Source of the DNA: an uncultured Eubacteriales bacterium
GTDB taxonomy: Bacteria; Bacillota; Clostridia; TANB77; CAG-508
Direction: 5' to 3'
NCBI GenBank assembly: GCA_949289635.1
Contig: CASEOS010000001.1
Span: 76,088 to 140,087 of the forward strand
DNA: 64,000 nt
Of this stretch, positions 1,420 through 59,470 are shown in pieces. The stretch's first letter is position 1, and each line of letters opens with the position of its first letter. The notes under the pieces were generated by a model. The model was not told the origin of the DNA, searched no databases, and saw only the letters and a program-made list of their open reading frames with translations. Both the position numbers and the translations under genes were made by a program.

Positions 1420-1811
1420 AAGGGATTTTGGGGACGGACTCATTTTTCCCTTTTTTTAATTTTATATACAGAAAAAATATAGAATATAAAAAATGAAACG
1501 ATTTTGCGTATCTAAATTTGAAACTAGAAATTCTTAAAGAAAAAAATGAGGGATGTTCATGGGCAAGCAAGTGATATATTCATTTCTTATAAATGTCTCG
1601 GCTCAATACATACTGTACTCCAATCACATTCGACATATTATGCGAAATGAATATATCGCTTGCTTGAGCCTGAATGAAAGAGGCTCGTTTTTTTCTTTTA
1701 GAATTTCTGTGAAAATTTAGCTTATACAAAATCGTGTAATGACTTTATATTCTATATTTTTTAGATATCACAATTTAAAAAGGGAAAATGAGTCCGTCCC
1801 CAAAATCCCTA
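1420..1811. mobile_element. Miniature palindromic element, type A (TIR AAGGGATTTTGGGGACGGACTCATTTTTCCC). It fills the murC-spoIVB intergenic space and carries an extra structured core with a + strand intrinsic terminator at 1666..1694.
   Basis: There are perfect ~30 bp inverted repeats at 1420..1450 and 1782..1810. The interior is itself a long imperfect palindrome (AAAAATATAGAATATAAA, CGATTTTGCGTATCTAAATTT vs AAATTTAGCTTATACAAAATCG). A GAGCCT-loop-AGGCTC hairpin followed by T7 lies at 1666..1694. Confidence 0.8.
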
Positions 1812-3038
1812 ATGGACTTCTTTAGATTGTTTTAGCATCAAATCCCCAAATATGGCATAGCCTTCTGTGGATGAATTTACTAAAACATGCGTAACTGCTC
1901 CTACAAATTTTCCATTTTGTATAATGGGTGATCCACTCATTCCTTGAATAATGCCACCTGTTCTTTCTATTAGTTCTTCATCTGTCACCTTAATTTCCAT
2001 ACTTTTATTATTATAATTATTATCTCGATATATTTTTGTTATTTCAATTTCATATTCTTTTACTGTTTGATTATCTAAACTACATAAGATTGTTGCCTTT
2101 CCAGTTTGTATTTCCTCTCTCATAGCCACTTCCATTTCTTTACTTGTATCAATATTTAAACTAGACAAATCTTCTATTTTCCCATATATTCCAAATTCTG
2201 TATTTTTTGTAATTTCACCTATTGTTTTTTGATCTTCTACCGTTCCTTGTATTTTCCCTGGATTTCCATCTTCTCCTTTTTTTATATCCAATACTTTTGC
2301 TGTAACAAATTCTCCTGATGCAATATTTAGCAAGTCACCTGTATCTATATCTGTAATTCCATGTCCTAATGCTCCAAAATGTTGTGTTGCAGGCTCGTAA
2401 AAAGTAACTGTGCCAACACCTGCTGCACTATCTCTTACCCATAATCCCAATTTGTATTCTTCTTCACTTGTTTTTATAGGCATTATACTACATTCTTTTG
2501 TTTCTTCGTCATGTATATATTCAATTTCCACTTCTTCTCCTTTTGACATATTCACTTTTTCTATCAATTCATCTGTTGAATTAATAAGATTATCATTAAT
2601 TTTAACAATTGTATCTCCTTCTTCTATGCCTGTATTTTCATATGGTTTATATATTTTCCTGTCTTCTCCTTCTATTTCAGACATTCCCACAACCAATACA
2701 CCATTTGTATATAATTTAACACCAGCCACACTTCCCACAGGAATCACTGTTGTTTTGGGAAGGACGGATACATCTATATTTTTTAAAAATATTGTATTAA
2801 ATAAATTAACAGATAATGTTTCATTTCCGATTTTATGAATTGTCTTTTCTCCTGAATTTGCAGAAACTTCCATAGTTTCATCTTTGGAATGGAGTGTTAT
2901 TCCGAAAATTGTTTTTAATGATATATTTTCTCCTTCAAATATCGTAATTTTATCTGGGATATAATGAATAACTAATACATACATATATATAATTAATAAA
3001 AAAGTTAATACTATTATTTTTTTGAAAATCTTTTTCAT
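1809..3038 (-). CDS. spoIVB: Stage IV sporulation protein B, S55 signalling serine peptidase with PDZ domain
   Basis: 409 aa with an N-terminal membrane anchor. The C-terminal GIIQGMSGSPIIQNGKFVGAVTHV segment matches the SpoIVB catalytic serine region. The TAG stop is formed by the element terminus (CCCTA). Confidence 0.85.
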   Translation of the reverse strand: MKKIFKKIIVLTFLLIIYMYVLVIHYIPDKITIFEGENISLKTIFGITLHSKDETMEVSANSGEKTIHKIGNETLSVNLFNTIFLKNIDVSVLPKTTVIPVGSVAGVKLYTNGVLVVGMSEIEGEDRKIYKPYENTGIEEGDTIVKINDNLINSTDELIEKVNMSKGEEVEIEYIHDEETKECSIMPIKTSEEEYKLGLWVRDSAAGVGTVTFYEPATQHFGALGHGITDIDTGDLLNIASGEFVTAKVLDIKKGEDGNPGKIQGTVEDQKTIGEITKNTEFGIYGKIEDLSSLNIDTSKEMEVAMREEIQTGKATILCSLDNQTVKEYEIEITKIYRDNNYNNKSMEIKVTDEELIERTGGIIQGMSGSPIIQNGKFVGAVTHVLVNSSTEGYAIFGDLMLKQSKEVH

Positions 3039-3063
3039 ATATTCTCCTACTTTCCTTTATTTA

Positions 3064-3092
3064 TAGTATTAACTTTATTACTTTTTCTATTC
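3064..3092 (-). promoter_or_regulatory. Candidate forespore (sigma-F/sigma-G type) promoter for spoIVB: -35 GAATA, 17 nt spacer, -10 AATACTA
   Basis: On the minus strand the sequence reads TGAATAG-N17-AATACTA about 25 nt upstream of the AGGAGA RBS. This fits the GnATA-N17/18-CATACTA consensus. spoIVB is sigma-F/G dependent in Bacillus. Confidence 0.4.
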
Positions 3093-3099
3093 AATTACA

Positions 3100-3136
3100 T
3101 ACAAAAATAGAAATCTTTTTTCAAGATTTCTATTTC
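3100..3136 (-). terminator. Rho-independent terminator ending the pilus-like operon
   Basis: A perfect 12-13 bp hairpin (AAATAGAAATCTT, loop, AGATTTCTATTT) is followed on the minus strand by a T-run (the A-run at 3102..3107 on the + strand). Confidence 0.5.
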
Positions 3137-3206
3137 AATTTTTGAGTGCAAATATCTTTTTATAAATATTTCGATTATTTTTTTATTTTACTATATCCGT
3201 CCAAAA

Positions 3207-57811: not shown

Positions 57812-57840
57812 TTGACAGATACTTTTTAATTTTATATAAT
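57812..57840 (+). promoter_or_regulatory. Consensus sigma-A promoter (TTGACA-17-TATAAT) for the thioesterase gene
   Basis: Exact TTGACA at 57812..57817, a 17 nt spacer, and exact TATAAT at 57835..57840, 27 nt upstream of the ATG. Confidence 0.6.
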
Positions 57841-57866
57841 ACCTTTTCGAAAGGAAGCGATTTTCA

Positions 57867-58283
57867 ATGAGTTTTATATATGAAAGAACTATTAATTATT
57901 ATGAAACAGATAGAATGGGCGTTGTTCATCATTCTAATTATATTCGTTTTTTAGAAGAAGCTAGATGTGAATGGTTAAAAGCAGCTGGTATGCCTTTTGA
58001 AAAATTCGAAGAACAAGGTATCACCATTCCTGTTTTAGAAGTCAAATGTAAATATAAGCATCATGTAACTTTTGCTGATACAATTTTAATTAAAGTATTT
58101 GTAAAAGAATTTAATGGTGTTAGATTGACAATTCAATATGAAGTAAAAGATAAAAAGACGGGAAATGATGTGATTATAGCTGAAACCAAACATTGTTTTA
58201 CTGATAAAAGTTTAAGACCTGTGAATTTGAAAAAACATTGTCCTGATTTTAGTAATAAGTTTGAGGCAGTAAAAGAAGCTTAG
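57867..58283 (+). CDS. Acyl-CoA thioesterase, 4HBT/YbgC hotdog family
   Basis: 138 aa. YERTINYYETDRMGVVHHSNYIRFLEEAR is the 4HBT signature with the catalytic Asp. Confidence 0.75.
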   Translation: MSFIYERTINYYETDRMGVVHHSNYIRFLEEARCEWLKAAGMPFEKFEEQGITIPVLEVKCKYKHHVTFADTILIKVFVKEFNGVRLTIQYEVKDKKTGNDVIIAETKHCFTDKSLRPVNLKKHCPDFSNKFEAVKEA

Positions 58284-58306
58284 GAAAAAGTCTAAGCTTC
58301 TTTATT
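58274..58306. terminator. Bidirectional rho-independent terminator between convergent genes
   Basis: AGAAGCTTAG, loop, CTAAGCTTCT hairpin with A-rich sequence on the 5' side and T-rich sequence on the 3' side. Confidence 0.55.
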
Positions 58307-59353
58307 CATTTCTTCTAACATATCATTCATATAATTTAAATTGATTTTATGTGTTACTTCTAATTGTTCTATAAAACTTTTAGTATAATTTGTATTTACA
58401 TTTAACACAGTTGCATAGGCAAGATGTTTTTCTAACACAATTACACTTTCTAACGGTTTATCTTCTAATAAAGTATAATCTTCTAAAAACTTTTTATATT
58501 TGTCCCATCGTTTCATTTCTTTGGCACCTTTTATCGTATAGATGCCATCTAAATATTCTCCTTTTCTTAGATAATGTACTATCCTTTTCATAAAAGGCTC
58601 TAATATAGCAAGTTCAAAAGCTACAAAAAATGGAACAAATATCATTTTAAACATTCCCTTGCTAATTTGATTATTTCCAGTTATTAGTGAATATAACATA
58701 AATCCTATCAGCATAGCAAAATATAAATATAGAAATATGTCCGTCAAACGAATTTTACTTTTTTTAGCAAAATGATAACTTTCAAATTCTTCTCTTACAT
58801 ATCTTATCCATGTACTCATATTTATCTTTTCTTTTTTACAAATTGTATCATATAAATATTTTTCATCTTTTTTTAATGTTTCACTATTTTGGTTTGATAA
58901 TGGCTCTAGTGCATAATGATTTTCTTCTTTCTTTTCTATTTTTAGAAATCCTTTTGCGCATAGATTTAATATACATGAAACTAAGTCTTTCTTTTTTTCT
59001 ATTTTTTGATTTTGCAAATAAGATAATACTGCTGGACTATATTCTACCTCTATATCTCTAATATAAATTCCTTCATCTTTTGATAATCTTACCTTTATCT
59101 TATTATATATAGTATTTCCTACTCTTATCACAAGATATCCTATTATTGTAACAGAGGTTAACAGTATAAATCCATTTCCAAACAAACTATTGGCAAATAG
59201 AAATGGAATAATTGCTAACATAAGATATAATGGAATGGTTGCTAAGAAAATTTTTTGTGGTTCTATTTTTCCTTTTCTGGTACTTGTAATGATAACACCA
59301 ATTACAACAAGAAAACCATATATAAACATTGCAAATATTATAGTATTTATCAT
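58292..59353 (-). CDS. Hypothetical polytopic membrane protein
   Basis: 353 aa with two N-terminal TM helices, a central soluble region and further C-terminal TM helices. Confidence 0.3.
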   Translation of the reverse strand: MINTIIFAMFIYGFLVVIGVIITSTRKGKIEPQKIFLATIPLYLMLAIIPFLFANSLFGNGFILLTSVTIIGYLVIRVGNTIYNKIKVRLSKDEGIYIRDIEVEYSPAVLSYLQNQKIEKKKDLVSCILNLCAKGFLKIEKKEENHYALEPLSNQNSETLKKDEKYLYDTICKKEKINMSTWIRYVREEFESYHFAKKSKIRLTDIFLYLYFAMLIGFMLYSLITGNNQISKGMFKMIFVPFFVAFELAILEPFMKRIVHYLRKGEYLDGIYTIKGAKEMKRWDKYKKFLEDYTLLEDKPLESVIVLEKHLAYATVLNVNTNYTKSFIEQLEVTHKINLNYMNDMLEEMNKEA

Positions 59354-59424
59354 TTTCTTCTCCCTTTATTTCTTTCATTTTCTAGTATATTTTTTCTCTT
59401 AGAAATCATTTTTATATTGGTTTA

Positions 59425-59470
59425 GGTCTGTCCCTTTCGTTCCATTTTGGAACGATTTGACACGTCCCTA
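59425..59470. repeat. Solo type B terminal repeat between polC and the upstream gene, TA-flanked
   Basis: GGTCTGTCCCTTTCGTTCCATTTTGGAACGATTTGACACGTCCCTA. Confidence 0.75.

Follow-up and report, generated by a model that had tools for sequence, protein, structure and literature searches.

The described bacterial repeats closest to the family reported here are the repetitive extragenic palindromic (REP) sequences, together with the bacterial interspersed mosaic elements (BIMEs) and REP doublets forming hairpins (REPINs). These are short imperfect palindromes that occur in high copy number between genes, mostly behind genes and often at ~15 nucleotides (nt) or less from a stop codon. They are found as singlets and inverted doublets, where the doublet is copied with its spacer and singlets look like decay products, and a genome may hold several subfamilies that have differing stems, share one short invariant motif and make no target-site duplication (TSD). 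All of these features recur in the palindromic elements that we analysed in a 64-kb stretch of an uncultured Clostridia genome (contig CASEOS010000001.1; hereafter the window; ~28% G+C, with nearly all genes on the minus strand). The elements are built from hairpin units with a GGGGACG core, and their host is an uncultured spore-former, with germination protease, YtxC, small acid-soluble spore protein (SASP) and SpoIIE-type genes nearby or in relatives. Unlike in REPIN systems with their REP-associated tyrosine transposases (RAYTs), the host is a low-GC uncultured member of the Clostridia and the available sequence yielded no RAYT-like gene; the family also nests far deeper than REPs, with long forms of 390–480 nt.

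The elements similarly resemble bacterial miniature inverted-repeat transposable elements (MITEs), such as Correia/NEMIS of Neisseria, RUP of Streptococcus pneumoniae and Nezha of cyanobacteria, in being non-coding, 100–500 nt long and bounded by terminal inverted repeats, and in having many copies, size variants with shared ends, nested insertions and gene-adjacent positions with possible effects on transcription. However, neither a TSD nor a cognate insertion sequence (IS) was detected here, the tips vary between flavours, and what is conserved is a loop motif inside a covarying hairpin. The REP subclass of Stenotrophomonas maltophilia known as SMAG repeats comprises several stem-loop subfamilies in which stems and loops differ while one short invariant motif is shared, and the repeats occur as singles, pairs and larger arrays, as they do here; the motif, its position (at the 5′ end, versus in the loop here) and the phylum differ. 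Integron attC sites, which are recognised as folded single strands, are likewise imperfect palindromes of variable length and sequence in which only short inverted core sites are conserved. The attC cores GTTRRRY / RYYYAAC are nevertheless absent here, where the cores are GGGGACG / CGTCCCC, and in place of one-orientation cassette arrays beside an integrase (none was found in the window) the elements are scattered among housekeeping genes in either orientation. Palindrome-associated transposable elements (PATEs) derived from IS200/IS605 carry, on one and the same strand, a similar subterminal hairpin at each end and have a fixed 4–5-nt target, whereas in the present family the end units are inverted, with one GGGGACG-loop hairpin per strand, and no fixed 4–5-nt target was seen. 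These hairpin repeats are confirmed as a real, lineage-specific and previously undescribed family.

Hairpin units with an invariant loop motif

The exact core GGGGACG occurs 18 times in the window, nine times on each strand, against 0.14 expected, and none of 100 shuffled sequences reached this number. The initial annotation had listed at least 16 copies of a repeat in at least five flavours (A–E), and inspection of the sequence and its inverted repeats bore out all of the positions and flavours listed. Its count was too low: with the core relaxed to GGGACG, the window contains 24 units at 14 sites, comprising 8 doublets or longer palindromes and 6 singlets, at a density of ~1 unit per 2.7 kb. 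Five flavours hold for the window, and many more are found once relatives are included, where stems of more than 20 sequences distinguish the subfamilies.

A single unit is a hairpin of 30–45 nt whose loop displays TTGGGGACG. The stem is 6–12 bp long and variable in sequence, and the loop spans 13–21 nt, starting with (T)TGGGGACG at a constant register. Across the window and related loci, the sole invariant letters are GGGACG, mostly preceded by (T)TG; at least 44 distinct, perfectly paired arm sequences surround this core, the loops are symmetric about a fixed axis, and the foot of the stem shows no conservation among units. Folding as single-stranded DNA agreed with the initial description of the units as stem-loops presenting the core in the loop, with one exception taken up below: singlets are weak to moderate (−3 to −12 kcal/mol, z −2 to −4), while doublets are strong (−30 to −39 kcal/mol, z ~−11). 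Most flavours contain a hairpin plus a T-run.

Pairing of the stem was assessed by reducing every core in the data to 150 diverse 41-mers, chosen without regard to pairing. Standard pairs occupied 53.8% of cells in register compared with 43.1 ± 1.0% after shuffling (0 of 500 shuffles as high), and fell to 39–49% when the register was slid by 1–3 columns. The covariation score behaved in the same way, at 0.349 in register versus 0.205 for shuffled and 0.135–0.241 for slid alignments, and at the central stem pairs GC, CG, AU and UA were all frequent. Truncated outer layers are among the sampled sequences, so complete units in fact pair to a higher degree. A single orthologous site illustrates the same behaviour. 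Upstream of a gene similar to DNA-alkylation-repair genes, a unit is present in seven related genomes with a constant loop and a differing stem, which is GGGACAA/TTGTCCC in the window and TGTCC/GGACA or ATGTCCAA/TTGGACAT elsewhere.

The 14 sites in the window, with their neighbours, are as follows.

1421–1810: long type A element, consisting of two inverted A hairpin units (AAAAAGGGATTTTGGGGACGGACTCATTTTTCCCTTTTT) and a palindromic interior of modules X, Y and Z (X arms 1499–1519 and 1713–1734); sits between convergent stop codons (1416–1418 and 1809–1811) and belongs to a size series.
20827–21163: long type B element with 82-nt arms, 99% complementary, each beginning with a B hairpin (..ACGTTGGGGACGTGTCAAATCGTTCC); interior of an X-like module (X arms 20923–20944 and 21049–21069) and a central hairpin; adjoins the stop codon of a glycosyltransferase gene (21163).
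22576–22841: nested element, an outer C pair (GGGACAATTGGGGACGTTTCTTTTTGGACATTTT) around a complete A doublet and spacer (A at 22615–22805); 96-nt arms, 90% complementary.
26960–27196: type A element with X interior (A part 26960–27177) and a decayed outer unit at the right (27178–27196); occupies the whole spacer from the 3′ end of a tRNA (26884–26956) to the stop codon of a sigma-factor gene (27192).
27944–28047, minus strand: solo type B unit (GGAACGATAGGGACGTGTCAAATCGTTCC; ~27990–28047) and a second hairpin-like stretch, folding at −9.0 kcal/mol (z −4.1); an insertion relative to the related loci L087 and L135 that provides the TAG stop (28037–28039) and final codons of a GH18-domain gene, replacing the codons of L087.
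30657–30691, plus strand: solo type C hairpin, stem GGGACAA / TTGTCCC, −4.9 kcal/mol (z −2.8); directly upstream of the ribosome-binding site (RBS) of the minus-strand DNA-alkylation-repair-like gene.
31658–31692, minus strand: solo type C unit; the stop codon of an ABC-transporter gene (31697) is 5 nt away.
36668–36726: minimal type B doublet, two inverted B units 3 nt apart, −29.6 kcal/mol (z −12); the TAG just ahead of a core is the stop of a NUDIX hydrolase gene (36719–36721).
44532–44634: type E doublet (GTTGCCAAAGGGGACGTGCCATTTTGGCAAC, 37-nt spacer), −11.8 kcal/mol for the unit and −36.6 kcal/mol for the doublet; begins 6 nt past the stop codon of a GH57 gene (44526).
44672–44716, minus strand: solo type D unit, one arm of which is partly duplicated (AAAATCACCCAAAATCATCA).
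47780–47812, plus strand: solo type C hairpin, stem TGTCCA / TGGACA, −3.1 kcal/mol (z −3.2); adjoins the RBS of the germination-protease gene (start 47763, minus strand).
51574–51698: type D doublet (TGATGATTTTGGGGACGGAGCAAAAAATCATCA, 42-nt spacer), −39.3 kcal/mol (z −10.8); directly follows the gmk terminator.
52532–52656: second D doublet, inverted relative to that at 51574–51698 and 97% identical to it over 125 nt including the spacer; fills the spacer from the remA stop codon (52657) to the rpoZ RBS.
59417–59478, minus strand: solo type B unit with an adjoining GGGACAGACC stretch; the polC stop codon (59476–59478) is the TGA within its 5′ arm (TGAAACG).

Inverted arms in the window measure 26–125 nt and are 70–99% complementary, and no element contains an open reading frame (ORF). 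The palindromic interior that A and B had been said to share was found at exactly three elements, against none expected by chance. The accompanying statement that all copies are intergenic holds for most of them, the exceptions being three B units, each of which runs into the stop codon of a gene (gene ends at 28037, 36719 and 59476). The C units at 30657–30691 and 31658–31692 flank a Bax1-I family membrane-protein gene on both sides. The mutually inverted D doublets at 51574–52656 likewise bracket the pair rpoZ and gmk, which overlap by 7 nt and here follow the order remA–rpoZ–gmk; the usual order in Firmicutes is gmk–rpoZ, the reverse of that in the window.

Nesting, copying and turnover

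The nested architecture recognised in the initial annotation, as in the C pair around an A doublet at 22576–22841, recurs in the family, in which different flavours enclose one another as C[A], E[D[D]] and B[E], and tandem outer A layers are spaced ~21 nt apart. The bases that flank doublets are usually inverted repeats of each other (AAAA/TTTT, AAAATC/GATTT, TTGA/TCAA or GAAA/TTTC), which suggests that elements land at the centre of a pre-existing palindrome or hairpin. Zero-spacer palindromes of the form TGCACAG..GGGGACG/CGTCCCC..CTGTGCA are present among the loci of relatives. At the edges of 106 doublets, direct repeats of 4–9 nt occurred at chance level, and repeats of 2–3 nt showed a weak excess with no consistent sequence. 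A TA duplication in the style of IS630/mariner was not a consistent feature: most of the copies inspected lack one, and since the repeat has fuzzy ends a 2-bp TA duplication is best called unlikely. No fixed tetranucleotide or pentanucleotide was seen in the flanks.

Copying is evident from repeats of one arrangement at separate places. A short A doublet with the same asymmetric spacer lies at four or more unrelated loci of one genome, in both orientations. Copies of the 390-nt element at 1421–1810 are 93–94% identical at other loci in other species, compared with 86–89% identity for syntenic DNA between those species. The doublet, two inverted units with an asymmetric spacer, is the unit that is copied, and singlets are its decay products; many copies are decaying, having lost cores or being reduced to half elements, and the spacer between gmk and a uvrA-like gene holds a singlet in one strain (L009) and a doublet in nine others.

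The A-ended elements form a size series of ~480, 390, 330, 218, 180, 110 and 60 nt in which the termini are shared and internal stretches differ, which fits internal deletion of a long palindrome. One member lacks just one arm of module X, and a short direct repeat bounds one of the deletions. The short forms therefore look like internal-deletion derivatives of the long forms. Several contigs end inside elements, breaking within long palindromes and not inside a transposase.

Comparison of copy positions across relatives revealed that a given site may differ in the presence, size or orientation of its element. In the spacer between the L27 and glycosyltransferase genes, where the window has the C[A]C element at 22576–22841, L134 has a C doublet without A, L135 has nothing, L128, L130, L132 and L136 retain only left arms, L133 has an A doublet and L137 an A singlet. 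In the spacers orthologous to that of the element at 20827–21163, relatives have an ordinary terminator, B[E]B nesting or palindromes of other kinds. Some relatives have only a terminator between the sigma-factor gene and the tRNA, and others have an A element, which may be the short doublet, A[X], A[X[Y[Z]]], the last of these with its interior inverted, or a decayed copy; part of this variation lies within a single species of 97–98% average nucleotide identity (ANI). Several alleles at orthologous sites resemble replacements more than simple insertions. At the sigma–tRNA site, L135 (6188–6530) and L136 (5940–6240) have the entire interior of the A element in opposing orientations, which fits either recombination between inverted arms or re-insertion.

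A separate observation concerns the glycosyltransferase–era spacer, where L128 (12002–12163) and L130 contain a 166-nt palindromic insertion relative to L132 and L136. This insertion lacks any GGGACG core, has the direct repeat TTGAAT on either side and occurs in two of four strains of one species of 97–98% ANI; it may represent a separate MITE, one whose insertion duplicates the target.

Gene context and distribution

The cores are strongly associated with the ends of genes. Among 366 intergenic cores, 174 lie within 45 nt of a stop codon, compared with ~49 expected at random intergenic positions, whereas cores near start codons are depleted (21 versus 50 expected). The most frequent distance from core to stop is 10–14 nt, which means that the 5′ arm starts at the stop codon. 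Some spacers, such as those of remA–rpoZ and of the sigma-factor gene and tRNA, consist of the element alone, and in some relatives an element occupies the place of what is elsewhere a canonical terminator. A separate terminator-like hairpin was found for 4% of genes with a unit after the stop versus 15% (p = 1.6e-5), a comparison confounded by the element itself, which occupies a large part of the interval that was scanned. The simple terminator scan misses the units themselves, the loops of which are too large for it. As judged from sequence, the units appear to stand in for terminators as a candidate role. An association with the RBS as a rule was rejected, as single cases are striking but cores are depleted near starts and enriched near stops. 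Relative to gene direction, isolated singlets have a weak strand bias (44 versus 27). A Chi-like signal was ruled out by the equal numbers of cores on both strands.

The range of the family was assessed by scanning one genome per GTDB species with a type A 17-mer. At least 117 hit regions were obtained, nearly all of them supplied by ~15 metagenome-assembled genomes (MAGs) of uncultured Clostridia/Bacillota from chicken, sheep and other gut samples; the exceptions among the matches listed were ~6 single-match hits in unrelated phyla. The type A loci of relatives additionally carry flavours B, C, D, E and others. The repeats are accordingly found genome-wide and in ~15 related species, well beyond the window, and were not traced to any annotated IS. 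Viral contigs contained neither of the two cores searched for, A and B, and BLAST gave no match in plasmid records (queried with the type A element) or in phage records (queried with the type B element). A literature search did not find the type A unit sequence and gave nothing relevant on the core, nor on RAYT/REPIN or MITE systems in Firmicutes/Clostridia. In a search of Rfam at gathering and E-value thresholds, only the tRNA passed; the elements give sub-threshold hits to miRNA precursors, which are generic because any long hairpin would give them.

Mode of spread and competing explanations

On balance, these data favour the idea that the elements are a superfamily of lineage-specific, non-autonomous palindromic repeats that are both REP/BIME/REPIN-like and MITE-like and are probably spread by a protein acting in trans. 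We are highly confident of the general description of the family; recognition of a single-stranded hairpin as the mechanism is put forward tentatively, with somewhat less than even confidence. Since the loop is invariant and the stems covary, a single enzyme that reads the GGGGACG core, as the initial annotation proposed, can reasonably be inferred as a candidate protein. Such a protein would recognise the hairpin together with the loop motif, the DNA being single-stranded or extruded, and might be a RAYT/IS200-type HUH enzyme or an equivalent that leaves no TSD. Nesting apparently arises when an element inserts into the middle of a palindrome or hairpin already in place, doublets decay to singlets, and long forms yield shorter ones with the same ends. 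The hairpin plus T-run (on the other strand, an A-run plus hairpin) may act as a bidirectional terminator or 3′-end protector, and copies may be tolerated or favoured because they could terminate or protect in either direction.

If this is true, a clade of uncultured gut Clostridia has its own high-density hairpin-repeat system, with a recognition logic of fixed loop and free stem as opposed to the fixed motif at the stem foot of REPs. The display of TTGGGGACG on a hairpin would offer a handle for finding the responsible protein, which could be a new single-strand-specific DNA tool, and the elements would be a natural case of selfish palindromes recruited as terminators in streamlined, AT-rich genomes. 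In practical terms, the repeats break MAG assemblies and can shift predicted stop codons.

Several observations weigh against this reading. The motif (T)TGGGGACG stands at the 5′ side of the loop, whereas the GTAG of REPs stands at the foot of the stem, and RAYT systems are described mainly in Proteobacteria. The hybrid C unit at 22576–22612 fails to fold alone. The arms of flavours B and C look like the core itself (GGAACG, GGGACA), so that repeated double-stranded binding sites fit as well as a hairpin. The innermost modules X, Y and Z have no core, and a long X+Y+Z palindrome in L144 (900–1230) is a symmetric variant without GGGGACG, in which TTGGGAAGCAGACGCA replaces TTGGGGACGGACTCA by the identical change on both outer arms; this variant represents either homogenised arms or a sub-lineage with a different core. 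The sampled loci are, moreover, biased to the surroundings of type A copies. The failure to find an enzyme belongs to the same list: the 1.23 Mb of sequence sampled around copies, a fraction of each genome, contained no candidate enzyme and no autonomous copy or transposase. ORFs of ≥100 amino acids, clustered over ~0.9 Mb, formed orthologous syntenic sets with no multi-copy ORF or transposase among them, and tblastn of the 1.23 Mb with IS608/IS200 TnpA (approximate queries) gave nothing credible, the best match being in spoIIE. Inverted core pairs 500–4000 nt apart bracket only housekeeping genes, the exceptions being an HNH gene in a sheep MAG and, in another, a VirD4-like gene.

Other searches were in agreement. 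The initial annotation had stated that no transposase is encoded in the window, and a Pfam scan of unannotated ORFs there gave no nuclease or transposase. The full-length IS or RAYT-like gene with the same ends that it had suggested looking for elsewhere in the genome was not found in the 1.23 Mb of element-rich sequence, and no full-length IS of this kind was found at contig ends, among metagenome hits or in viral, phage and plasmid collections. A metagenome scan with the X arm returned eight matches, all of them ordinary or decayed copies and none an autonomous form. The MITE/REP-like label given initially remains apt for a non-coding repeat superfamily in the right neighbourhood, but the classical MITE picture found no support, neither a TSD at the doublets examined nor, in the 1.23 Mb, an autonomous copy having been seen. 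As the family has neither the GTAG of REPs nor the TSD of MITEs, it works like both systems and is filed as a member of neither.

Three loci that came up in these searches are described for their own sake. In L039 (4074–5000), the HNH endonuclease gene (239 amino acids, Pfam HNH E = 1e-10) lies between fmt and hrcA, is bracketed by an A-like and a D-like unit, is present in one sheep-gut MAG only and, judged by eye, is apparently higher in G+C than its surroundings. The contig start in L056 (1–90) encodes what we take, from its motif, to be the C-terminus of an IS3-family transposase (...GMSPVQYRVHSQVA*) unrelated to the elements, followed by a TG...CA-type end with TGTCCAATTTTTTGGG that is only loosely like the arm of a C unit. 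In L052 (6026–6814), a 788-nt insertion relative to L111 (7094), present in one genome, separates a gene end from its terminator and contains a small ORF (132 amino acids, no Pfam match), with a degenerate unit at one end.

A more specific version of the trans-acting model, which we regard as unlikely though worth keeping in view, is that an analogue of REPIN–RAYT evolved separately in low-GC Clostridia. Here an unrecognised domesticated nuclease or recombinase would read the GGGGACG loop on a stem of any sequence, nick single-stranded DNA beside the loop, and copy or insert doublets into hairpin tips. This would explain the zero-spacer palindromes centred on GGGGACG/CGTCCCC, the Russian-doll nesting and the flipped interiors, and would imply that a large share of the terminators of the lineage has been rebuilt from such elements.

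It seems rather unlikely that the elements are classical MITEs, that is, internally deleted copies of a DDE-transposase IS moved as double-stranded DNA, with GGGGACG as the binding site and tandem cores ~21 nt apart as multiple sites of the type found at the ends of Tn7 or Mu. Binding to double-stranded DNA does not need stem covariation in a fixed register, the outermost tips are wholly different between flavours with the conserved 7–9 nt lying ~10 nt inside, the 106 doublets as a set gave no sign of a TSD, and an autonomous copy was found neither in the 1.23 Mb nor in the metagenome hits, with phage and plasmid records holding nothing similar. These points stand against long perfect terminal inverted repeats (34–125 nt), a size series with shared termini of the type usual in internal-deletion families, nested insertions, tandem core repeats with a 20–22-nt period at both ends and the core-like arms of flavours B and C, all of which a MITE origin would accommodate; and as MAG assemblies often lose multi-copy IS, the missing IS is weak evidence.

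The strong concentration at stop codons, the filling of whole spacers and the replacement of canonical terminators would also be expected if the elements were selected host features (bidirectional terminators, stabilisers of mRNA 3′ ends or protein-binding sites) moved by ordinary recombination, as would the retention of a solo unit at one position upstream of one gene in seven genomes, the same-site alleles that look like replacements rather than insertions, and copies more conserved than adjacent DNA. Recombination alone, however, fails to explain an identical doublet and spacer at many unrelated loci in both orientations, and leaves the nesting of flavours unexplained. Many copies are visibly decaying, the stems are weak and the loops large for intrinsic terminators (hence missed by a simple scan), and no Rfam family matches, so that we consider this explanation quite improbable. 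It is highly improbable that the long palindromes encode structured non-coding RNAs in the form of long hairpins, with the short forms as remnants: although the long hairpins are very stable and the asymmetric internal loop of module X is conserved in all copies, Rfam gives only generic miRNA-precursor hits far under gathering scores, the elements occur in both orientations relative to neighbouring genes, central parts are freely lost, and no promoter or terminator is consistently associated. That the core is a DNA uptake signal or other strand-independent signal, comparable to the Neisseria DNA uptake sequence (DUS) or Haemophilus uptake signal sequence (USS), is scarcely credible, because, while it is short, rich in G+C and present in vast excess for so AT-rich a genome, equally numerous on both strands and frequent in inverted pairs behind genes (uptake signals being often found as inverted pairs in terminators), all 18 copies of GGGGACG are intergenic or at a stop codon with none deeper in genes, the core lies in the loop and not the stem, is restricted to structured elements, and is embedded in conserved elements of 30–480 nt with discrete subfamilies.

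Apart from the hairpin elements, the window contains two further features of note. A T-box leader below the Rfam gathering score (69 versus 93 bits, E = 6e-13) lies on the minus strand at 26516–26719, and between it and thrS is an unannotated ORF of 257 amino acids with no Pfam match (25714–26487, minus strand); in L129, L133, L134 and L135 this ORF is missing and the leader region stands directly before thrS. A gene for a GtrII-like glucosyltransferase of ~485 amino acids (16615–18090, minus strand) is also found in L130 (14892–16349), L133 and L137, and is present or absent among relatives at one position, between the genes for a ribosome hibernation factor and a SASP.

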